64,000 nucleotides of DNA from an uncultured Chlamydiales bacterium. Its GTDB lineage: Bacteria > Chlamydiota > Chlamydiia > Chlamydiales > Rhabdochlamydiaceae. A model generated the notes under the pieces. The model made no database searches and had not been told where the DNA came from. It saw only the letters and a list, made by a program, of their open reading frames with translations. A program made the position numbers and the translations under genes. This document shows positions 45,416 to 64,000 of the stretch, in pieces (position 1 is the stretch's first letter; every line of letters begins with the position of its first letter). The DNA is taken from the NCBI GenBank assembly GCA_963700985.1, contig OY969554.1, positions 1,792,001 through 1,856,000 of the forward strand, given 5' to 3'.

Positions 45416-47467
45416 TTAGTCAATATTGTGAACATCTAGCATGCGTTGCTGTTCTGGTGTCCGTGCAGCCGCTCTTTTTGTGCGTTCTTGCAGCATCTCA
45501 TAAAGAACCCTGACGCGAGTATCTAATTCGCCTTTTTCAAGCTCAGCTTGTCTGATACGCTTTTCCATTGCCTTAATGGTTTTCTGCATTTTTTTAAGCT
45601 GCTCGTCAGCAGTATTTGCGCTCTCTACAGCTTTGTCACGAGCTGCAATCAATCTATTCATATATTCTGTCTGTGCTTTTATCGTGTTCAAAGCACCAGC
45701 AGTCGTCTCTGTTGAGGCTTTGACGACCTCTTGCGCGCGCTCCTGCTCATCGTCTGAATCAGAACTCGCTTTATTAATTTGTTGCTTTAAAGCTCGAATT
45801 TGTAGCCCTTGCTTATCTCTTAGCTGTTCGGCTTCATTACGCTGTTTTTCAAGCATGCTCATCTGCTGCTTCAACAACCCAATTTCTCGATCGTGCTCTC
45901 TTTGTGCATGTGCGCTTGCCTGATCGTAAGCTGTTTGGTTTTGGCCTATCTTATGATCAAAAGAAAGATTTCGCTCTTCGCTCTCTTTAAAGCGTTGTGT
46001 TACGGATGTAAGTTGTTGCTTAGCTTGGCTTTCAGAATCTTTTAGGTTCACAAATTCTGCATTTAGATCCTCGACCCTGCTGGCCAGTGATTGCGCCTGC
46101 TCTACTAGCTCACCATTTTCGATTTCTTTATGCGCAAAAGCGTGCTCAAGCTCACTAACTTGGAGCGCCAATCGGAGGTTTGCTGCTCTTTGAGTTTCAA
46201 GCTGCTTGCTTAAAGCAGTCACTTCGGTAGATCGATCTGGGTAAGCTGGTTTTTGTGCAGAAAGTTCAGTGATTTTTCTCTCTGCTTCGCTGACATCATG
46301 CTCGAGCTCCAAGATGCGCTTTTCGAAATTAAATTTTTCTGAAGCAAGTTGTGTCTCTAGCTCAGCCACTCTTTTATTTGCATTTTCTAATTCAGTCGTA
46401 AGCACGTCGATTTCTGGAAGAATCTGTTCAATATAGTCTTCTAACTCGACTTTTTCTTTTTGGAGTATTGCAACTTCGTTTTGGGCTTTGGCAAAAGCTT
46501 GCTCGAGTTCTTGGATTCTCGTTTCTAACGCTGTCTTGTCTGAGGTCTTGTCGTCTTGCGCTGCAGCGAGTTGTGCCTCTAGCTCAGCCGCTCTTTTAGT
46601 TGCTTTTGTTAATTCAGATCTAAGCCTGTCAATCTCTGCATTTGCAGTTGCAATGTTTGCTTCTAACTCGCTTTTCGTATTTTTGAGAGCAGCAATCTCG
46701 GCTTGGTCTGCATTAACAGCTTTTTCGAGCTCGCCGATTCTTGCTGCTGATTCAGCTTTATCTGCAACGCTGCTTTTTTGTAATTCAGACAACTCTTTTT
46801 GGAGTTGTTCAATTCTTTCGTCGAGGTCGCGGATTTTTTGCTTAGCTGCTCCATATAGTTCGAGCTGGGTTTTCAAAGTGCCAGTAAGTTCTTCTTGAGA
46901 AGCTGAGCACTGCGTATTTTCTTGAACAAGACGTGCATTCTCTTCGGCTAAACCTCTGACTTGACCTGTAAGATCTTCAACTCGATGCGTAAGCCCGGTT
47001 TTTTCGTCGGTTAAACGGTCAATCTGAGAGCGTAATTCTTCCATTGCTGCAGGATTTACTGCGCTTTGGGGTTCAGGTGATGGCGTAAACGTGCGCGGAA
47101 AGCTTAATCTTCGGGCAGACTCAGATGAGGGGGAAAGTCCGCGGTTAGCGATTTTTATGATTTTTTTGCAGACCTTCTGAATCTCTGGAGTCTGTTTAAC
47201 AGGCATGCTTGCATGGCTGTCTTTGAGGGAGACGGTCAGTCTTTTAGTTGGGCCATCGATGTCTAAAAGCAGGCGTTGGCCCGCAGTAATCGTGCCATTT
47301 GATTTTAAAATTTGGACGAGTTTAGCAACATGCGTTTGAGTTTCATTAATGAAGCTGCTGTCAGCTTTTTTAGCCGTTGTACGACCGCCTTTGCCTGGGG
47401 AGGTATATTTGATGCGTGTAATGCTATGCGAGGGCGAGCTATCAGGTCCTGTTAATGCTAATGACAT
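45416..47467 (-). CDS. Long coiled-coil protein with internal repeat; candidate effector
   Basis: Continuous E/K/Q/L/A heptads from about residue 140; S/P/T-rich N-terminus. Confidence 0.8.
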   Translation of the reverse strand: MSLALTGPDSSPSHSITRIKYTSPGKGGRTTAKKADSSFINETQTHVAKLVQILKSNGTITAGQRLLLDIDGPTKRLTVSLKDSHASMPVKQTPEIQKVCKKIIKIANRGLSPSSESARRLSFPRTFTPSPEPQSAVNPAAMEELRSQIDRLTDEKTGLTHRVEDLTGQVRGLAEENARLVQENTQCSASQEELTGTLKTQLELYGAAKQKIRDLDERIEQLQKELSELQKSSVADKAESAARIGELEKAVNADQAEIAALKNTKSELEANIATANAEIDRLRSELTKATKRAAELEAQLAAAQDDKTSDKTALETRIQELEQAFAKAQNEVAILQKEKVELEDYIEQILPEIDVLTTELENANKRVAELETQLASEKFNFEKRILELEHDVSEAERKITELSAQKPAYPDRSTEVTALSKQLETQRAANLRLALQVSELEHAFAHKEIENGELVEQAQSLASRVEDLNAEFVNLKDSESQAKQQLTSVTQRFKESEERNLSFDHKIGQNQTAYDQASAHAQREHDREIGLLKQQMSMLEKQRNEAEQLRDKQGLQIRALKQQINKASSDSDDEQERAQEVVKASTETTAGALNTIKAQTEYMNRLIAARDKAVESANTADEQLKKMQKTIKAMEKRIRQAELEKGELDTRVRVLYEMLQERTKRAAARTPEQQRMLDVHNID

Positions 47468-56011: not shown

Positions 56012-58951
56012 TCAGAGCTCTTGGCGTTTTAGCATTTCGGCGAAGAGGCCTTTGGCTGCAGCGAGTTCTTTATACGTGCCAACTTCGATGATTTTTCCTT
56101 GATCCATCACATAGATACGATCGGCGTTGCGTGTAGTGCTCAGCCGGTGTGCGATCATAACGCGTGTGATATTGAGCTCGGTTAAATTTTTGTCGATTAG
56201 ATTTTGAGATGTATTATCGAGCGCGCTTGTCGCTTCATCGAGGATGAGGATTTTTGGCGAAGCAGCAAGTGCCCTAGCCAGATATAGGCGTTGCCGCTGC
56301 CCTCCAGAGACTGTATTGCCTCCTGTCGACATGACCGTATTTAATCCCATGGGTAAGGCTTTAAGGTCATCATCTAAATTGGCCATATGGATGGCTTTTT
56401 GAATGTCCTCAATGGACAACACCTTAGATCCTGCGATGATATCATAAATGCTCCCGCCTAACATGCCTTCGTTTTGAAGAACGGTGCCTATCTGTTTTCT
56501 AATTTGGCGGATGTCGTAATCAAAAATACTACGATCGTCAAAGAGAATTTCACCTTGTTCGGGTGTTTCGAATCCGAGCAGAAGTCTAACGATGGTCGAT
56601 TTGCCGCATCCTGAAGGGCCCACAATCGCAATCATTTCGCCAGGATGAGCGAAAAGGGAGACATTATCCAATGCGAGTGGCCCATCGGGAGAATAACGGA
56701 AATTGACATGCTCAAGCGCAATGGAACCTTTGAGCACGATGGGCGCACTCTTTTCAGGTAACGCTTCAGTTTCCGATTGAACGAGGACTTTTGATCTCTC
56801 CCAATAGGGCAGAACAGTCCAGATTGAAAATGCCATTTGGAAGACTTCGAGCGCGGAAGCTATTAAAAGCGCATAGGCAGTATAAAAGCCTAAGAAAGCT
56901 CCGAGCGACTGCGAAGGGTTTATCGAGGATGAGACTTTTGGATCGTTGCGGAATGTGATGATTGCTACCCAAAAGAGGAGTGTGGCCATGAGCACAGGAA
57001 AGATCCGATAGACAAGTCTTTCAATTGCGGTAACGATAAGCAGCTTTAAATCGATCTTCTTTTTCTGGCTGAAGACATTTCCCCATAAGCTAAAAAAGCG
57101 GCCCTCTGCGCCTGAGATGCGGATTTTTGCGATGCCGGAGATGATCTGTACGACGATTCCCTGAATTGTGGTTCCCAAAGCGAAACTCTTTTTGGTCAGT
57201 CTGACTTCTATGGCAATGCAAAGAGTAAAAACAAGAGCGGCTACGAAGAGGCCGATTAATCCTATGGTGGCAAATTTTGAATTATAAGCGAAAAGCATCG
57301 CGAAGTAATAAAGGCAGAAAATGGAGGTCACGCAAAGATTTATGAGATTAGAGCTAGTCTCGTAGCGAACTTTTTCGTAAGCCATGATCCGCGTAATGAG
57401 GTCACCCGAGGTGAACTTGCGAAAAAATGAGAGTGGGAGCTGAAGGACGCGTAACCAGAGACCAGTTTGCATTTCGCTTTTAGATAATCCTTCGATTCGC
57501 AATACGAGAAAATTTTTGCAAAAAGTATAAATTGTCGTGCTAAATGAAACCAGGAGCAGTCCGAGCACAAATTGCTTAAAAAGAGAGATATCTGTTCCAA
57601 AAAGGATCTTGTCGAAGAGCTCTCGCGTAGCAAAAGGAAGAAACAGGTTGAGAGAGCCGATGACTATCGCAATAAAGAGAATCCAAACAAAATTCTGTTT
57701 ATTGTATTCAAACGAGAACTTTGCAATGCGGAAAAGGGTCATTTCTCCTTGTGGAAATCCTCGATAAAAAACGTAGGCGCGCTTGGAAAGCTCTTTGGCT
57801 AGCAGAGGGGTAAGTGTTAGCCTTTTTTTCTCTTGAAGATCGACAATCTCATAATTGTTTTTGATGGGCATCAAAGCCACAGGGCGCTGCTCTGGGCCAA
57901 AGAATCCCAAAAGTGGTTGCATGGCCTCTTTCCACCACCGACCCTTCAAAGTAATGCGACGGAAGTTGATATTGCTATTCAAGCAGATCTCGATCACTTC
58001 ATCATCGACTGTCGTGGCTTTTGTGGGCGTATTATCAAAGCTTAGCCCCATTGTTCGACCAATTAGATCGCACGTTTGAAAAAGAAGGTCTCCTTGATGC
58101 AAATGCGCAACCGTGATCTCTTCATTTAAAACAGAGCCGAGGCTGAGCAGCGTCTGCTCGATTAAGTCTTCTTCAAGGGTCTGTTTCTTTTGCAACCTTA
58201 AAAGGGCATTTTCTAGCTCTTCATTCTTCTGTTTGACGACAGTTTTAAAAAGCTCATATCCTAGTGCTTCAATTCCTTTCCAAAATTCAGGTTTCTCCAA
58301 AGCTTGAGTGGTTGAAAAAGTTGCCAGAGTCGATTCTACTTCACTTCTCAACCAGTGAGATTGCGTGATAGGATAGAGAGTTCCAGTTTCTTTGAAGAAT
58401 AAAGAGGAGGCTTCATCTAAAAAGCTGCAACTGCCTTTCAATACCTCTACCCAAAAAATGTGCTCTTTTTCTTCTGGTGTGAAGGATTTTTGTGGGCCAG
58501 CGACTTCTCCTGGCTGTAGATCTGTATTTTCACCTACTTTAAGCACCTTTTCAATGCGCTCTTCTCGATGTGGAAAAGGCGAAAATATTCGATGGATGTA
58601 ACTCTCGAGTAATTTGATAATGCTCTCTTTTAGGACAGCATCCTTAGCCATCTCTGCAAGCAGGGTATTTGCGGAGACTTTACGCAGCGTTGTTTTTCGC
58701 GGAGAGAGGAAAAAAAGGCCGTAGTTTTTTTCTTCAGATGTAGCTCTTCCCAGGATTAGATCGCCCTGTTTGATATGCGCGACAAAAATAGGTAGAAAGT
58801 GGGGATCTTTTGGATCGTAGAGAAATAGATCTCCAACCTCTTGCTCCATCACCCAAACAGTGAAGGGTTCATTGAGATTGTAGCGAACGCTGGCTTCAAG
58901 CGAGATCTCTTCGCCAATATGTGATGGCAGCACGAGTGAGCTATCTTGCAT
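56012..58951 (-). CDS. NHLP/NHLM bacteriocin-system ABC exporter, permease/ATPase without an evident C39 peptidase
   Basis: RRITLKGRWWKEAMQPLLGF...PVALMP segment typical of NHLM transporters, TM domain, GPSGCGKST, VSGGQRQR, LDEATSALDN; adjacent to NHLP precursors. Confidence 0.9.
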   Translation of the reverse strand: MQDSSLVLPSHIGEEISLEASVRYNLNEPFTVWVMEQEVGDLFLYDPKDPHFLPIFVAHIKQGDLILGRATSEEKNYGLFFLSPRKTTLRKVSANTLLAEMAKDAVLKESIIKLLESYIHRIFSPFPHREERIEKVLKVGENTDLQPGEVAGPQKSFTPEEKEHIFWVEVLKGSCSFLDEASSLFFKETGTLYPITQSHWLRSEVESTLATFSTTQALEKPEFWKGIEALGYELFKTVVKQKNEELENALLRLQKKQTLEEDLIEQTLLSLGSVLNEEITVAHLHQGDLLFQTCDLIGRTMGLSFDNTPTKATTVDDEVIEICLNSNINFRRITLKGRWWKEAMQPLLGFFGPEQRPVALMPIKNNYEIVDLQEKKRLTLTPLLAKELSKRAYVFYRGFPQGEMTLFRIAKFSFEYNKQNFVWILFIAIVIGSLNLFLPFATRELFDKILFGTDISLFKQFVLGLLLVSFSTTIYTFCKNFLVLRIEGLSKSEMQTGLWLRVLQLPLSFFRKFTSGDLITRIMAYEKVRYETSSNLINLCVTSIFCLYYFAMLFAYNSKFATIGLIGLFVAALVFTLCIAIEVRLTKKSFALGTTIQGIVVQIISGIAKIRISGAEGRFFSLWGNVFSQKKKIDLKLLIVTAIERLVYRIFPVLMATLLFWVAIITFRNDPKVSSSINPSQSLGAFLGFYTAYALLIASALEVFQMAFSIWTVLPYWERSKVLVQSETEALPEKSAPIVLKGSIALEHVNFRYSPDGPLALDNVSLFAHPGEMIAIVGPSGCGKSTIVRLLLGFETPEQGEILFDDRSIFDYDIRQIRKQIGTVLQNEGMLGGSIYDIIAGSKVLSIEDIQKAIHMANLDDDLKALPMGLNTVMSTGGNTVSGGQRQRLYLARALAASPKILILDEATSALDNTSQNLIDKNLTELNITRVMIAHRLSTTRNADRIYVMDQGKIIEVGTYKELAAAKGLFAEMLKRQEL

Positions 58952-59027
58952 CTTCTCTTTCCCTCTATGTTTGTCACATTAGAGGAATAGAGTCATTTCA
59001 GCAAGCCACCCTTAATATGAAAAGATG

Positions 59028-59142
59028 ATTTAACCACAGAGGCACAGAGAACGCAGAGTAAAGAAGGAAGATTATTTTTTTGTTTCTCTTACAAAAAACG
59101 GCTTCTTTCTTCTCTGTGTCCTCTGTGCCTCTGTGGTTAAAT
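59028..59142. repeat. CACAGAG-type palindromic element, copy 2, in the divergent exporter/ycaO intergenic region
   Basis: 22-bp perfect inverted repeat ATTTAACCACAGAGGCACAGAG / CTCTGTGCCTCTGTGGTTAAAT. Confidence 0.88.
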
Positions 59143-59193
59143 TATTTAAGATTTATTTTGATTTTTGAGGGGTGTTGTGCAAAATGCAGATCT

Positions 59194-60507
59194 ATGCAGC
59201 CAATTTTTTTTCGTGGAACACCATTTTCAGCGCGCAAAGGCTTCTTTGAGGGGACTCATCGCATCCAAAGCCCTGAGCAGACTTGGAAGCAGATTGCACC
59301 GCTTGCACCTTTAATTGGAGTGTCTCGGGTTGCGAACATCACAGGTTTAGACAAGATTGGCATTCCAGTGACGATTTCGATTCGGCCTGGGGCTTTCACG
59401 TTATCTATCTCTTCGGGCAAGGGCCTCTCTCTGGTAACTGCGCAGGTCTCTGGCCTAATGGAATCTTTGGAAGTTTTCTGTGCAGAAACAGCCAATCTTC
59501 CCTACCTTCTTTTTTCCTATAACGAACTGATTAAAAGATATACGGCGCCGCTTTTAACCCATTTATCTTATCGATCTCACGCGTTATTTCATCCTGATCT
59601 GCCGGAAAAATGGGTTTTAGCATGGGATCTATTTGGACAAGAAGAGGTGGCAGTTCCTCTGCAAAGCGTCATGCAAGATTATCGCGTAAGCAGAAATGAA
59701 AATCAGGAGCTTTACTCAATTCGCATGGACACAAATGGCCTGGCTTCAGGATGCCATTTTTTAGAAGCAGTTGCCTCCGGGGTTTATGAACTCATCGAGC
59801 GCGATGCGATGAGCTGCTATCTCGCTCTTAAAGAGCGCCACCATCAGCCATTGAAAAGAGTGAAGCTTGATACGATCCGGTATCAGAGTGTGTTAGAAGC
59901 TCTGGAACAGATTGAAAGAGCAGGAGTTCAAACCCTCTTATACGATTGCACGGTGGATACTGAAGTGCCCGTATTTAAGGCCTCTATTTATGATAAGCAC
60001 CTTCGCCATAGTATGGGCATCTGCGAAGGCTATGGCGCACATCTCGATCCAGAGGTAGCCATGATTCGTGCCATTACTGAAGCCGTTCAGGGAAGAACCA
60101 TCGCGATTTCGGGCTCCCGAGATGACATTTTTATGTCACAATTCAATGCCATGAAGAAGAATGATGTAGCTGAAATTATTCAAATCATCGAAGCCAATCC
60201 TGCTACCATCGATGCCGCTTCTTATACATCTGGTGCAGGTGCCACTTTAGAAGAAGATATTCACATTCTCATGCGTAAACTTAAAAATGCCGGCCTTTCA
60301 CAACTGCTGGTGTTCGACTTAAGCCAGGAAAAACTGGGCATGTCTGTGGTACGTGTCATTATCCCGGGTCTAGAAGGATACTATTCTCGTAATTTTGATC
60401 CGGGATTAAGAGCTAAGAAGTTTATCTCAGAAAGAGCAACTACAATTAAAAAAACGCCATGCGATCAAAGAGAAGGTACGCACTTTCCTGCAGGAGCGCT
60501 TTTATGA
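59194..60507 (+). CDS. ycaO: YcaO-family enzyme, TfuA-associated (thioamide-forming) type
   Basis: GTHR, GVSRVANITGLDKIGIP, SGKG...MESLE, TNGLASG, YELIERDA, RAITEAVQGR...SGSRDD, VVRVIIPGLE; no C-terminal PxP motif. Confidence 0.95.
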   Translation: MQPIFFRGTPFSARKGFFEGTHRIQSPEQTWKQIAPLAPLIGVSRVANITGLDKIGIPVTISIRPGAFTLSISSGKGLSLVTAQVSGLMESLEVFCAETANLPYLLFSYNELIKRYTAPLLTHLSYRSHALFHPDLPEKWVLAWDLFGQEEVAVPLQSVMQDYRVSRNENQELYSIRMDTNGLASGCHFLEAVASGVYELIERDAMSCYLALKERHHQPLKRVKLDTIRYQSVLEALEQIERAGVQTLLYDCTVDTEVPVFKASIYDKHLRHSMGICEGYGAHLDPEVAMIRAITEAVQGRTIAISGSRDDIFMSQFNAMKKNDVAEIIQIIEANPATIDAASYTSGAGATLEEDIHILMRKLKNAGLSQLLVFDLSQEKLGMSVVRVIIPGLEGYYSRNFDPGLRAKKFISERATTIKKTPCDQREGTHFPAGALL

Positions 60508-61898
60508 CCATTTCTCCCGATGATATTCTCATTTTTCTTGGACCATCTCTTCCAGTTGAAGAGGCAAAATCAATCTTAGATGCCCGCTATCTCCCGCCGG
60601 CCAAACAGGGAGATATTCTGAGCGTTGCAGTGCAGTTTCAACCCAAAGTTATCGGATTGATCGATGGAACCTTTATGCAGACCTTATCGGTGTGGCATAA
60701 AGAGATCCTCTATGCGATCGATCAGGGGATCATCGTATTAGGAGCCAGCAGCATGGGCGCGTTGCGCGCAGCTGAAACCGCTGACTTTGGCATGATCGGG
60801 GTTGGAAAAGTCTTCGAGCTCTACCATAATGGCACGGTGATCGATGATGATGAAGTTGTGCTCATCCACGGGCCCAAGGAAGAAGGCTATATTCCGCTTT
60901 CCCTTCCTCTGATTAACATACGTTTTACCTTAGAGCGCGCTAAAAACGAGCAGAGAATACCTGCGGATGTTTGCGAGGCCTTCTTTGCGCTTGCACAAGA
61001 GCTTTATTATCCTGAAAGAACCATCGAGAACATTATTGAGTGCGCTCGTAAAAAAGGCTTTTCAGAAGAATTAATCGGCGATGTCACTGGGTGGATGCAA
61101 GCACACTATGTCGATCAGAAAGCTGATGATGCACGCCTTCTCTTACAAAAAATCAAAGCTCTATCTCTTTCAGAGACAGTAGAAAAAAAAGAATTTTCAA
61201 GGACATCGCTTTTTGAGGTGCTCTTTCATGCAGATAGGCGCCTCTCTTTCTCCGAAGTTGAGCTTACCCAAAGGCAGATTGCTCAGCATTTTGCGCTTCA
61301 TGATCCGCATTTTCCAGAGATGCAGTTCAATGCGATGAATCAAGCTATGGCCAATGCGCTTTCTAAAATTTACAAGGTTGAGGTTTCCGTTGAGGAGATC
61401 AAAGAGGAAAAAAAGCGCTTTCGCAGACGCCATCTGCTTCAGGAAGATTGGATGTGGACATCTTGGCTTGTACGCAATCATTTAACCGAGAAAGAGTTCT
61501 CTTCTCTTGCAGAAGAAAAAGCAAAAACACGCAAGCTTCACGCCTGTTTTTCCAGTGGGCAATTTCCTTGGAAGCAGGGAAAGTTTTTACTTAACGAGCT
61601 TAAATGGGCTGATCGATACGAAGAGGGCCTAGAAAAAGCAGTTGCACAGGAAGAAATATTAAACGAAATCGCCCGCTATTACAATGAGACTGATTCATCA
61701 GAAATCTATCAAGCAAAGTTCATCGACGCTCACAAGGAGGCGACTGGCTGGAATCCCGATATGCCTCTTAAGGAGTGGGCCGAAGAAGCTGGCTTCGAGG
61801 ATCTTTTAAAGCTTGTCACGGAGATTCACAAATCTAAGATCGCGCGCGATCATCTTAATAAGATAGTCGAAGCCGGCCTTGACGAAGCCAGTCAATAA
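60504..61898 (+). CDS. tfuA: TfuA protein with long C-terminal extension
   Basis: IFLGPSL, PPAKQGD, LIDG.F, SVWHKEIL, GASSMGALRAAE, DDDEV; ATGA overlap with the ycaO stop. Confidence 0.95.
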   Translation: MTISPDDILIFLGPSLPVEEAKSILDARYLPPAKQGDILSVAVQFQPKVIGLIDGTFMQTLSVWHKEILYAIDQGIIVLGASSMGALRAAETADFGMIGVGKVFELYHNGTVIDDDEVVLIHGPKEEGYIPLSLPLINIRFTLERAKNEQRIPADVCEAFFALAQELYYPERTIENIIECARKKGFSEELIGDVTGWMQAHYVDQKADDARLLLQKIKALSLSETVEKKEFSRTSLFEVLFHADRRLSFSEVELTQRQIAQHFALHDPHFPEMQFNAMNQAMANALSKIYKVEVSVEEIKEEKKRFRRRHLLQEDWMWTSWLVRNHLTEKEFSSLAEEKAKTRKLHACFSSGQFPWKQGKFLLNELKWADRYEEGLEKAVAQEEILNEIARYYNETDSSEIYQAKFIDAHKEATGWNPDMPLKEWAEEAGFEDLLKLVTEIHKSKIARDHLNKIVEAGLDEASQ

Positions 61899-61929
61899 CC
61901 ACAATTTTGCGACCGATCAGGACGAGAAA

Positions 61930-62208
61930 TTACTCCAAAGTCCAGATTACTACTTGTGTAGCCGCTGCCGCCGCAATTTGTTTTAAATCTGCCTCATCAA
62001 GTTCGGTGGCATTGGTGGGAGCTGGCGGTAAAAGAAAAGTGAAATGACGCGCATCGTCTTCTTGAATACGCACTTCAACATTGGCAGGAATGTCATAGCC
62101 CATTTCTTTTAAGGTCTCTTTAGGCTTAGCGATGAGTTTTTTGCGAAAAGCTGGATCTTTCCAAGCTTTTGCAATAATTTTTGCCCTTATGTCTTTATTT
62201 TTTGGCAT
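61930..62208 (-). CDS. NHLP-leader RiPP precursor 6, core about AATQVVIWTLE
   Basis: IIAKAWKDPAFRKKLIAKPK...FTFLLP...ELDEADLKQIAAA leader. Confidence 0.93.
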   Translation of the reverse strand: MPKNKDIRAKIIAKAWKDPAFRKKLIAKPKETLKEMGYDIPANVEVRIQEDDARHFTFLLPPAPTNATELDEADLKQIAAAAATQVVIWTLE

Positions 62209-62292
62209 ATTCTTTCTCTTTGTTAGTTAACTTTTATCTAAATAAATTGAGGCTGGTCTTGGTAATGCTAGTCATTGAGGGTTCAGCTCCTC

Positions 62293-62571
62293 TTAATCTC
62301 TCTTTAACTGGCGGGCTGCAACAAACCCTGCAGCAGCAATTTGTTTCAGTGCAGCTTCATCCAGCGTTTGAGCATTCTTAGGTGCAGCCGGTAAAACAAA
62401 AGTGAAATGACGTGCATCGTCTTCCTGGATACGCACCTCTACGTTAGCAGGAACGTCGTAGCCTATTTCTTTTAGAGTTTCTTTGGGCTTAGCGATGAGT
62501 TTTTTGCGAAAAGCTGGATCTTTCCAAGCTTTAGCAATAATTTTTGCTCTTATATCTTCACTTTTCGGCAT
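62293..62571 (-). CDS. NHLP-leader RiPP precursor 5, core about GFVAARQLKRD
   Basis: Same leader. Confidence 0.93.
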   Translation of the reverse strand: MPKSEDIRAKIIAKAWKDPAFRKKLIAKPKETLKEIGYDVPANVEVRIQEDDARHFTFVLPAAPKNAQTLDEAALKQIAAAGFVAARQLKRD

Positions 62572-62621
62572 ATTCTTTCCTTGTTTTACTGCGTAACCAG
62601 TTAGAGAGAAGAGGATTTTTC

Positions 62622-62900
62622 TTATTCTGGTCTTATTTGTAGGCCATAAGCAAGACCGGCCGCTGCGAGTTGTTTTAGCTCTGCTTCATCCAGCTCCTGA
62701 AAGTCCTTAGGAATGGCTGGTAAAACAAAAGTGAAATGACGCGCATCGTCTTCCTGAACACGTACCTCGATGTTCGCGGGGGCTTCATAACCCATTTCTT
62801 TTAAAGCCTCTTTGGGCTTAGCGATGAGTTTTTTGCGAAAAGCTGGATCTTTCCAAGCTTTAGCAATAATTTTTGCTCTTATATCTTCATTTTTTTTCAT
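62622..62900 (-). CDS. NHLP-leader RiPP precursor 4, core about GLAYGLQIRPE
   Basis: Same leader. Confidence 0.93.
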   Translation of the reverse strand: MKKNEDIRAKIIAKAWKDPAFRKKLIAKPKEALKEMGYEAPANIEVRVQEDDARHFTFVLPAIPKDFQELDEAELKQLAAAGLAYGLQIRPE

Positions 62901-62923
62901 ATTTTCATTTCCTTAAAATGCAT

Positions 62924-63199
62924 TCATCTTGATCCAAGACGGAACCCTACACCCCGACCTGCAGCAACGTTCTTCAACTCCGCTTCATCCAGCTCGGTGA
63001 TGTTTTTAGGAGCAATCGGCAACACAAAAGTGTAATGACGCGTATCATCTTCCTGGATACGCACCTCTACGTTGGCAGGAACGTCGTAGCCCATTTCTTT
63101 TAGGGTCTCTTTAGGCTTAGTGATGAGTTTTTTGCGGAAAGCTGGATCTTTCCAAGCTTTAGCAATGATTTTGGCTCTTATGTCTTCATTTTTTGACAT
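62924..63199 (-). CDS. NHLP-leader RiPP precursor 3, core about RGVGFRLGSR
   Basis: Same leader, ending VAAG. Confidence 0.93.
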   Translation of the reverse strand: MSKNEDIRAKIIAKAWKDPAFRKKLITKPKETLKEMGYDVPANVEVRIQEDDTRHYTFVLPIAPKNITELDEAELKNVAAGRGVGFRLGSR

Positions 63200-63230
63200 G
63201 TTCTCTTCTCTTTAGAATATTTATTTGTAC

Positions 63231-63512
63231 TCAATGAGGAAATCCACCACCACAAAAAATCCAGACACTCCCAGCAGCAACTTGTTTTAGCTCTGTGTCA
63301 TTCAGTTCGCCGAGATTAGTGGGTGCAGGAGGCAGGGGGAAAGTGAAATGACGCGCGTCATCTTCTTGTATACGCACCTCTACGTTAGCAGGAATGTCAT
63401 AGCCCATTTCTTTTAGAGTTTCTTTGGGCTTAGCGATGAGTTTTTTGCGGAAAGCTGGATCTTTCCAAGCTTTAGCGATGATTTTGGCTCTTATATCTTC
63501 ATTTTTTGGCAT
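63231..63512 (-). CDS. NHLP-leader RiPP precursor 2, core about SVWIFCGGGFPH
   Basis: Same leader, ending VAAG; start corrected to MPKNED at 63512. Confidence 0.93.
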   Translation of the reverse strand: MPKNEDIRAKIIAKAWKDPAFRKKLIAKPKETLKEMGYDIPANVEVRIQEDDARHFTFPLPPAPTNLGELNDTELKQVAAGSVWIFCGGGFPH

Positions 63513-63525
63513 TTTTTCTTTCCTT

Positions 63526-63588
63526 TCATAGTGCATCCACTCCAATAACGTGCCCCTGACCCGCAGCAGCAATCTGCTTCAACTCTGC
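63526..63588 (-). pseudogene. Leaderless seventh precursor cassette AELKQIAAA-GQGHVIGVDAL*
   Basis: Manual translation starting 2 nt after the precursor 1 stop reproduces the leader end and gives a new 11-aa core with its own TGA. Confidence 0.8.
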
Positions 63589-63590
63589 GA

Positions 63591-63872
63591 TCAATAAACG
63601 TTCTTTGCAATGTGCCCCATGCTCTGACCCGCAGCAGCAACTTTCTTCAACTCTGCTTCATCCAGCTCGTTGATGTTTTTCGGAGCGATCGGCAATACAA
63701 AAGTGAAATGACGTGCATCATCTTCTTGTACACGCACCTCTACGTTAGCAGGAATGTCGTAGCCCATTTCTTTTAGAGTTTCTTTGGGCTTAGCAATGAG
63801 TTTTTTGCGGAAAGCTGGATCTTTCCAAGCTTTAGCGATGATTTTGGCTCTTATATCTTCATTTTTTGGCAT
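63591..63872 (-). CDS. NHLP-leader RiPP precursor 1, core about GQSMGHIAKNVY
   Basis: Same leader; SD AAGGAG upstream; ATG 63872. Confidence 0.93.
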   Translation of the reverse strand: MPKNEDIRAKIIAKAWKDPAFRKKLIAKPKETLKEMGYDIPANVEVRVQEDDARHFTFVLPIAPKNINELDEAELKKVAAAGQSMGHIAKNVY

Positions 63873-63922
63873 ACACACTTCTCCTTGTGTTGTTTATCTC
63901 TGTGTAGGCGATCTCTTGCTTT

Positions 63923-64000
63923 TTATAAAGTATTTTTTTGAAGAGCTTCGATTCCACCAATCAGAGAAAAGATGTTTTCTAAGCCTTTGCTTTTCAAGGC
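63923..64000 (-). CDS. 3' end of a gene ending in a rhodanese-like motif (partial; continues beyond the window)
   Basis: Translates ALKSKGLENIFSLIGGIEALQKNTL*, matching the rhodanese C-terminal pattern L...G..NV.SL.GG..AW. Confidence 0.6.
   Translation of the reverse strand, partial: ALKSKGLENIFSLIGGIEALQKNTL

Follow-up and report, generated by a model that had tools for sequence, protein, structure and literature searches.

The 64,000-nt stretch of DNA analysed here (the window; G000:C1:1792001-1856000, from contig OY969554.1 of assembly GCA_963700985.1) comes from an uncultured Chlamydiales bacterium of the Rhabdochlamydiaceae and ends in a tandem array of NHLP-leader (nitrile hydratase-like leader peptide) precursor genes, of the peptide-antibiotic type, for peptides that are synthesized ribosomally and modified post-translationally (RiPPs). 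Directly behind the first of these genes, precursor 1, lies a 63-nt element on the minus strand (63588-63526), here termed cassette X, which is a 5'-truncated copy of a precursor 3' end and comprises the final 10 codons of the leader, a core of 10 residues and a stop codon. The cassette looks preserved by selection, and in the reading that we favour, with a probability of about 0.4, it would be a 22-residue mini-precursor made by translational reinitiation and carrying only the exporter/peptidase recognition end of the leader.

The codons of cassette X, as read in the window, are GCA GAG TTG AAG CAG ATT GCT GCT GCG GGT CAG GGG CAC GTT ATT GGA GTG GAT GCA CTA TGA, encoding AELKQIAAAGQGHVIGVDAL followed by the stop. 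Precursor 1 ends in TAT TGA, with its stop at 63593-63591, and the dinucleotide TC then leads into the cassette; sequence and position are as in the initial annotation of this DNA, which had placed a core cassette 2 nt behind the precursor 1 stop. The same annotation noted that the cassette is missing from the open reading frame track; a 22-codon frame is nevertheless listed once the threshold is set at 20 amino acids. The features of the cassette and its immediate surroundings are as follows.

63594-63526, minus strand: 22-codon open reading frame MIAELKQIAAAGQGHVIGVDAL; it starts at TTG (63594-63592), which shares bases with the precursor 1 stop (TTGA).
63588-63556, minus strand: leader-end copy of cassette X, AELKQIAAAGQ.
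63555-63529, minus strand: core of cassette X, GHVIGVDAL; the core starts at G or Q, depending on the cleavage site.
63528-63526, minus strand: stop codon TGA of cassette X.
63624-63656, minus strand: 33-nt direct repeat, copy within precursor 1 (codons 73-83, AELKKVAAAGQ).
63513-63525, minus strand: 13-nt spacer AAGGAAAGAAAAA with the precursor 2 ribosome-binding site, directly after the cassette stop and before the precursor 2 ATG.

The first 33 nt of the cassette are identical to the leader end of precursor 1 (63656-63624) at 30 of 33 positions, with exact runs of 12 and 17 nt, which bears out the earlier observation that segments are common to the cassette and the end of precursor 1. Other leaders of the array match this block more poorly, and with up to 3 mismatches allowed the block occurs at only two sites in the whole window (expectation from 100 shuffles, 0.00). 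The offset between the two copies is 68 nt, and the repeat begins exactly at precursor 1 codon 73. As the copies are too unlike each other outside the 33 nt, Tandem Repeats Finder did not report an array. Relative to precursor 1, the cassette is read in the -1 frame, in which no stop precedes it as far back as 63657; in the 0 frame past the precursor 1 TGA, the next TGA follows after three codons.

The leader profile of the family was derived from six-frame segments of NHLP loci (62 stretches, 329,104 nt), among which 111 segments matched and 99 had full-length leader ends (two are duplicates from the overlap of L046 and L047). On the 77-position leader hidden Markov model, the full NHLP body of about 75 residues is absent from cassette X, which matches only the 13-position C-terminal sub-profile (9.7 bits). 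After its leader end, ELKQIAAAG, come 10 residues and a stop; this leader end lines up with those of the 99 full-length matches and carries their Gly/Ala-Gly/Ala motif.

The arrangement is found in independent assemblies. Run X1 gives a 199-nt contig over 63461-63659 with 0 differences, and run X3, from a different study, gives a 151-nt contig over 63469-63619 with 1 difference; each contig reads through core 1 and cassette X into precursor 2. The cassette lies in the same arrangement on L029, a diverged metagenome contig. The scenario that the initial annotation had named as its own refutation, an assembly collapse hiding a full leader in front of the cassette, is excluded by these contigs, as far as short contigs can show; the truncated cassette is real.

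Contig L029 (1397 nt, about 10% diverged from the window) starts in the 3' end of the ThiF-family gene (22/228 differences) and continues with the ortholog of precursor 1, with the cassette and with three further precursors. Its cassette, at 565-627, reads TGATC ACAGAG...GGTGTGGATGCACTATAA, which gives (M I) T E L K Q I A A A G Q G H V I G V D A L and a stop. The two cassettes differ at 3 of 60 positions, namely a conservative Ala to Thr change at codon 1 and two 4-fold synonymous changes, GCT to GCA and GGA to GGT; the Thr is the residue found at that leader position in precursor 2. A 1-nt deletion in the L029 cassette converts TGA to TAA at the same codon, so that frame, length and stop are kept, and it breaks the third frame. 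The sequence TTGATC, including the TTGA start/stop overlap, is also kept, and the 13-nt spacer behind the cassette has 0/13 differences.

Controls were taken from the same alignment. Third positions differ at 16/76 sites in ThiF, 17/72 in the precursor 1 leader and 12/56 in the precursor 2 leader, and the 4-fold sites pooled from the three genes at 18/72. Orthologous inter-precursor spacers differ at 22/83 and 10/50 sites (32/133 in sum), the precursor 1 5' untranslated region (UTR) at 7/50, the precursor 1 leader end at 7/33 and the precursor 1 core at 8/30, the last with 4 nonsynonymous codons. The cassette (3/60) is less diverged than the spacers (Fisher p=0.0010) and than the pooled 4-fold sites (p=0.0017), and its non-4-fold sites (1/50) stand out still more clearly against the spacers (p=0.00018). 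The core part alone, for which no paralogous donor for gene conversion is known, has 1 difference in 27 positions (P=0.006 at a neutral rate of 0.24). Split by codon position, the differences in the cassette (1/40 at positions 1+2 and 2/20 at position 3) resemble those in neighbouring coding sequence (12/408 and 45/204, respectively).

The low divergence relative to spacers and synonymous sites indicates that the cassette is not a freely decaying relic. The suggestion in the initial annotation of a relic of a leader-deleted precursor thus holds for the 5'-truncated precursor 3' end and fails for the decay: in this one lineage pair, the divergence is below the neutral rate, and neither frame nor start nor stop has been lost, unlike in a pseudogene. 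Judging from these comparisons, cassette X arose before this genome and the L029 lineage split, and it appears to have been kept since then under purifying selection. Its origin lies either in deletion of a neighbour's leader or in partial tandem duplication of the precursor 1 tail. Core X is most similar to the precursor 1 core (z=2.4) and then to a core of the second array of the genome, GQAQHAFTTGLDL (z=2.0); these similarities are too weak to choose between the two origins.

A translated mini-precursor is favoured because the TTGA overlap, frame, length and stop are kept, because the internal changes are synonymous and because the Ala to Thr change is compatible with a leader. Ribosomes that terminate at the UGA of precursor 1 would restart at the overlapping UUG (UUGA), and the product would be the 22-residue peptide M-I-A-E-L-K-Q-I-A-A-A-G-Q-G-H-V-I-G-V-D-A-L. 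This peptide would retain the last 11-12 leader residues, which are read by the C39 double-glycine peptidase/exporter, and would lack the folded nitrile-hydratase-like body that some modifying enzymes need; export would thus be predicted to occur without those modifications that depend on the leader fold. The single C39-ABC exporter of the genome would then cleave the peptide and export a short, little-modified or unmodified (G)QGHVIGVDAL beside the products of the full precursors. As the cassette stop lies on the precursor 2 ribosome-binding site, translation of the cassette would also chain the translation of precursor 1, cassette and precursor 2.

Position 76 of the leader profile is the third residue after the conserved I/V/L (ELKQIAAA/G, ELKQVAAG/S), and the alignment gives the spacing E(-8), L(-7) and I/V(-4), plus L(-12) and I(-15) in full leaders, which is the pattern of double-glycine leaders. 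Leaders of that class have hydrophobic residues at positions -4, -7, -12 and -15. According to one study, the C39 domain LahT150 cleaves substrates in which the leader of a ProcA precursor is reduced to its final 13-14 residues (PMC6363468). Another describes an L(X)4L leader motif and finds that the folded NHLP nucleus is dispensable for the enzyme SrpI and required by the LanM enzyme DprM (PMC12537861).

Relatives were searched for further leaderless cassettes with the 13-position sub-profile, as matches outside full leaders. NHLP leaders are present in 26 of 129 family genomes. The top matches were G004 (12.8 bits), cassette X (9.7), L029 (9.6) and G011 (7.6), with noise at 7.4 bits or below; in reversed sequences, the best match scored 9.3 bits and the next 6.0. 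In G004, which belongs to the same genus, a leaderless 26-codon open reading frame with an ATG start, MSDHELKPIAGGTLTVSFVFRSCAIR (L023 2141-2221, minus strand), stands at the head of a two-precursor array and splits into the leader end MSDHELKPIAGG and the core TLTVSFVFRSCAIR; it lies behind a spacer homologous to inter-gene spacers, and its ribosome-binding site and leader are deleted. In G011, from another genus (L060 4017-4406, plus strand), the only NHLP precursor ends in NIAAAAHKGHHGMYTK and a stop, and a 41-codon open reading frame, MACIPNELEKLAAAAGTIQHFSDACLRVINKKNSAWLIRSR, begins in the +1 frame 17 nt before that stop with its own ATG and AAGGGA upstream. This frame splits into MACIPNELEKLAAA and AGTIQHF..., with the leader-end motif NELEKLAAAAG and a 25-residue cationic core containing Ser, Thr and Cys; the overlap could be a frameshift error in the metagenome-assembled genome that hides a two-motif precursor. 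No homologues of this 41-aa product were found among proteins of 22-72 aa, and no leaderless cassettes at twelve further, mostly distant, loci. In the nearest species-level relative, G003 (L036), the precursor 1 ortholog is present and the cassette is absent. That NHLP arrays repeatedly spawn leader-minimal mini-precursors, reduced to the part of the leader that the C39 exporter recognizes and nested at or overlapping the stop of a full precursor and translated by coupling, with cassette X, G004 and G011 as the first examples, is a tentative generalization that we consider possible and on balance doubtful.

Several observations weigh against translation of cassette X as a mini-precursor. The TTG start has no conserved Shine-Dalgarno sequence, the upstream sequence being AAAGAAC here and GCCAGTG in L029. 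At 11-12 residues, the putative leader is shorter than the 13 that suffice in PMC6363468, and it begins inside the L(X)4L motif; the residues at -4 (I) and -7 (L) are present, with Glu at -8, and the hydrophobic residues at -12 and -15 are absent. The conservation evidence comes from one lineage pair, the difference from the precursor 1 5' UTR is not significant (p=0.18), and at most one amino-acid change among three substitutions would occur by chance with P=0.17. In addition, the 33-nt leader part of the cassette could be homogenised by gene conversion from functional leaders. In the family, the G004 cassette looks dead, its ribosome-binding site being lost, and decayed precursor fragments indicate that relics are common in these arrays: the leader at about 1400 on the minus strand of L073 is truncated at profile position 37 and has a 3-residue tail, and NHLP leaders with in-frame stops (TGA or TAA) occur in G097, G081 and G142 (L070, minus strand, 1662; L078, minus strand, 2239; L080).

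Many of these points would suit an inert relic of leader deletion or partial duplication, whose low divergence would result from chance, from a short inter-lineage recombination tract or from gene conversion: decayed pieces are common, the G004 cassette has no ribosome-binding site, no Shine-Dalgarno sequence precedes the TTG, a single pair was compared and the 5' UTR is not significantly more diverged. Moreover, the 116 nt from 63600 to 63485 are near-identical to L029 as a block and could be one imported tract. Such a tract, however, must end exactly at the precursor 1 stop, beside the strongly differing core 1, and the low divergence of the cassette relative to spacers and to 4-fold sites, and of its core part alone, together with a start overlap, frame, length and stop that are intact in both lineages, argues against inertness; we consider a relic rather unlikely. 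The stretch might instead be conserved as RNA or DNA, a coupling open reading frame or extended 5' UTR that links precursor 1 to precursors 2-6, with the peptide irrelevant. Consistent with this, the cassette start overlaps the precursor 1 stop, the cassette stop lies on the precursor 2 ribosome-binding site, 13 nt before the ATG, and L029 is identical to the window in the 13-nt spacer and in the first 28 nt of precursor 2. Nucleic-acid-level signals point the other way: folding z-scores for the cassette region in both lineages are 0.31, 0.06, 0.02 and -0.13, no promoter- or terminator-like sites occur on the minus strand at the cassette, and Rfam has no match there (four sub-threshold matches elsewhere are noise). 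Elsewhere in the array, spacer conservation is confined to the 15-20 nt or so that precede the ATG, and a cis-acting bridge would need neither a leader-end motif nor synonymous internal changes, the latter not significant alone. This explanation is improbable.

Recombination offers two further explanations, both raised in the initial annotation. In one, cassette X is an untranslated spare core, which a 68-nt deletion between the 33-nt repeats would place on leader 1. The geometry is exact: given the 68-nt offset and the repeat start at codon 73, a crossover between the copies would yield an in-frame precursor of 92 aa. Leaders of the array do recombine, as is evident from the reshuffled modules of L029, in which precursor 1 and the cassette are followed by a chimera of precursors 2 and 5 and then by a precursor 4 ortholog with the P4-P5 spacer behind it. 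The first 170 nt or so of the chimera are P2-like (14/168 differences), and its core and downstream spacer are P5-like; the moving unit seems to be a core with its spacer and the 5' end of the next gene, which would place the crossovers within conserved leader sequence. In this genome, the precursor 1 leader end agrees with the cassette over its 3' 17 nt, and in L029 over its 5' 20 nt (19/20); a match in a different half in each lineage suggests exchange. Such recombination fits the earlier proposal of core shuffling in general, whereas no product of the specific swap onto leader 1 turned up in the contigs, proteins and genomes compared. The 68-nt deletion joint of leader 1 and cassette X was found in none of the contigs of 4 runs, contigs in which rare variants are dropped; what these contigs did show was a replacement of 177 nt in a relative (X2) and, arising from the tandem leaders, joints of 360 nt that lead back. 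Core X as DNA (degenerate pattern, up to 2 mismatches) occurs in 1 of 129 family genomes, which is its own, and in none of the other 128. At the protein level, a 43-aa read of the cassette frame compared with longer proteins gave 3 candidates for core X on a full leader, none of which scored. Neither the two-sided homology nor the observable recombinants expected of a silent donor were found: only the 5' 33-nt block is common, and no 3'-side homology block for gene conversion was detected. The deletion would moreover be a one-way event that destroys core 1, and keeping 60 nt so intact asks much of second-order selection, which is weak. A silent spare core is quite improbable. In the other explanation, a programmed -1 frameshift in core 1 would produce a two-core precursor. 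The -1 frame does stay open from 63657 until the cassette stop, as it does in the corresponding stretch of L029, but a 23-codon open stretch has a chance probability of about 0.3, reading of the sequence gave no X XXY YYZ slippery heptamer in either lineage, no stimulatory structure is seen downstream (z-scores near 0), and the G011 cassette is in the +1 frame; this part of the earlier proposal is very hard to sustain.

With respect to known systems, the array resembles NHLP arrays with NHLM export (TIGR03793, TIGR03796/03797/03794) and prochlorosin-type arrays in its seven TIGR03793 precursors, conserved leaders, variable cores and double-glycine-type leader ends, and also in the ABC2 transporter, C39-ABC exporter and HlyD of the genome and the adjacent LanM. 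It differs from NHLP/NHLM systems in that YcaO, TfuA, ThiS and ThiF are combined with LanM, in an environmental chlamydial genome. Cassette X itself differs from the NHLP family by being without the NHLP body of about 72 residues and by its conserved location 2 nt behind the stop of another precursor in another frame. Like the double-glycine-leader peptides of C39 peptidase ABC transporters (PCAT/AMS), it begins with a short N-terminal extension whose last residues are an Ala/Gly pair, with I at -4, L at -7 and Glu at -8; unlike them, it has a leader of 11-12 residues with neither the -12 nor the -15 position, a TTG start and no ribosome-binding site of its own.

Silent pilS copies, which are 5'-truncated cassettes, feed pilE by gene conversion. 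Like them, cassette X is a promoterless, 5'-truncated copy of a variable region that adjoins an expressed gene and shares one conserved block with it; it differs in its one-sided homology, in the one-way deletion that would be required and in that no recombinants were found. In a preprint, prochlorosins are described as diversifying by core indels, in contrast to pilin domain swapping, and diversifying recombination is discussed (bioRxiv 10.1101/2020.03.09.984088). Engineered truncations of NHLP leaders offer a further parallel, since the C-terminal segment alone serves SrpI via L(X)4L and not the LanM DprM (PMC12537861); the contrast between these two enzymes provides a rationale for a cassette that would be exported and not fully modified. 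Those truncations keep the whole L(X)4L motif, whereas the natural cassette X begins after its first Leu. NHLP arrays, double-glycine-type export and engineered leader truncations are thus already known. The literature searched, in part as listings and abstracts, yielded no account of natural leader-truncated cassettes that overlap the stop of a precursor, and no chlamydial NHLP cluster appeared among the 12 papers listed by a search for such clusters.

The array genes are NHLP-leader RiPP precursors; the six within the window score 74-83 bits with TIGR03793, for which the cut-off is 50.9 bits. The full precursors and their neighbours are as follows.

63591-63872, minus strand: precursor 1, 93 aa, NHLP leader, core (G)QSMGHIAKNVY; TIGR03793, 81.4 bits.
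63231-63512, minus strand: precursor 2, NHLP leader; TIGR03793, 74.4 bits.
62924-63199, minus strand: precursor 3, NHLP leader; TIGR03793, 83.4 bits.
62622-62900, minus strand: precursor 4, NHLP leader; TIGR03793, 77.0 bits.
62293-62571, minus strand: precursor 5, NHLP leader; TIGR03793, 77.1 bits.
61930-62208, minus strand: precursor 6, NHLP leader; TIGR03793, 75.6 bits.
Genome 1857547-1857269, minus strand: precursor P0, the seventh full precursor, just outside the window.
63923-64000, minus strand: 3' end of the ThiF-family gene, which continues past the window.
60459-61898, plus strand: TfuA-like protein, 479 aa; NF033432, 225.9 bits (just below the cut-off of 235.2), and PF07812, 151.1 bits.
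59080-60507, plus strand: YcaO-domain protein; TIGR00702, 207.3 bits (cut-off 75.65).
56012-58951, minus strand: NHLP bacteriocin export ABC transporter, permease/ATPase subunit, 979 aa; TIGR03797, 714 bits (cut-off 709.4).

Because the full precursor P0 adjoins the window, cassette X is the eighth member of the array and not the seventh, as it had initially been counted. A terminator-like hairpin with a T-run (62925-62941, minus strand) overlaps the end of precursor 3 in mid-array and might divide the array between two transcription units or fix a stoichiometry. The genome also contains a second array of three close NHLP precursors (genome 44187-46543, minus strand) and two distant NHLP genes (1437163-1438912, plus strand).

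The genes for the YcaO and TfuA-like proteins are convergent with the precursor array, and the NHLM ABC2 transporter comes next. In the TfuA-like protein, the TfuA match lies in the N-terminal half (residues 23-234; Pfam 69-188), and the C-terminal 245 residues or so have no Pfam or NCBIfam match; in the ABC2 transporter, about 287 residues at the N-terminus form an extension outside the TIGR03797 match (288-977) and any Pfam match. Beyond the window end (stretch L045, genome 1855001-1874000), the ThiF-family gene is followed by a ThiS-family gene whose product ends in GG and then by P0. ThiS/ThiF, beside YcaO and TfuA, likely represent a sulfur relay for thioamidation. Further out are LanM (DUF4135 + LANC_like), a phosphopantetheinyl transferase (PPTase), a thiolase, a 1807-aa non-ribosomal peptide synthetase (NRPS; C-A-PCP-TE), a C39-peptidase ABC exporter, the NHLM HlyD and OEP. 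The C39-peptidase ABC exporter has 734 aa (L045 13190-15394), and its C39 domain takes up roughly the first 150 residues. LanM can act on few cores because most are without Cys. The array is thus associated with NHLM export genes: TIGR03797 lies in the window, and the C39-ABC exporter, which is the only one of the genome, the HlyD (TIGR03794, 189 bits) and OEP are 12-16 kb away. As a whole, the composite island (window 56012-64000 and beyond) comprises seven NHLP precursors, YcaO/TfuA/ThiS/ThiF, LanM, NRPS and exporters in a genome of 2.07 Mb. Elsewhere in the window, a 683-aa coiled-coil protein (45416-47467, minus strand) has sub-threshold matches only, to SMC-like proteins and, far below cut-off (E=6e-6), to the LegC2/C7 family of type IV secretion system effectors.

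Whichever explanation of cassette X holds, a small environmental chlamydial genome here carries a rare RiPP/NRPS island. As RiPP mining relies on leaders and on the size of open reading frames, a leader-truncated cassette of 22 codons is invisible to it, and product lists of NHLP clusters would be incomplete if such cassettes are translated. Were the cassette a donor or a relic, it would, together with the reshuffled modules of L029, document core rearrangement mediated by leaders. If it is translated, recognition for export would be naturally separable from recognition by modifying enzymes, as a natural counterpart of the engineered truncations in PMC6363468 and PMC12537861, and coupling at an overlapping stop and start would serve to set the ratios in which a single array yields its peptides. 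If such mini-precursors indeed arise repeatedly in NHLP arrays, the products of one operon would include, besides peptides modified by enzymes, short linear ones that escape the enzymes dependent on the leader fold.

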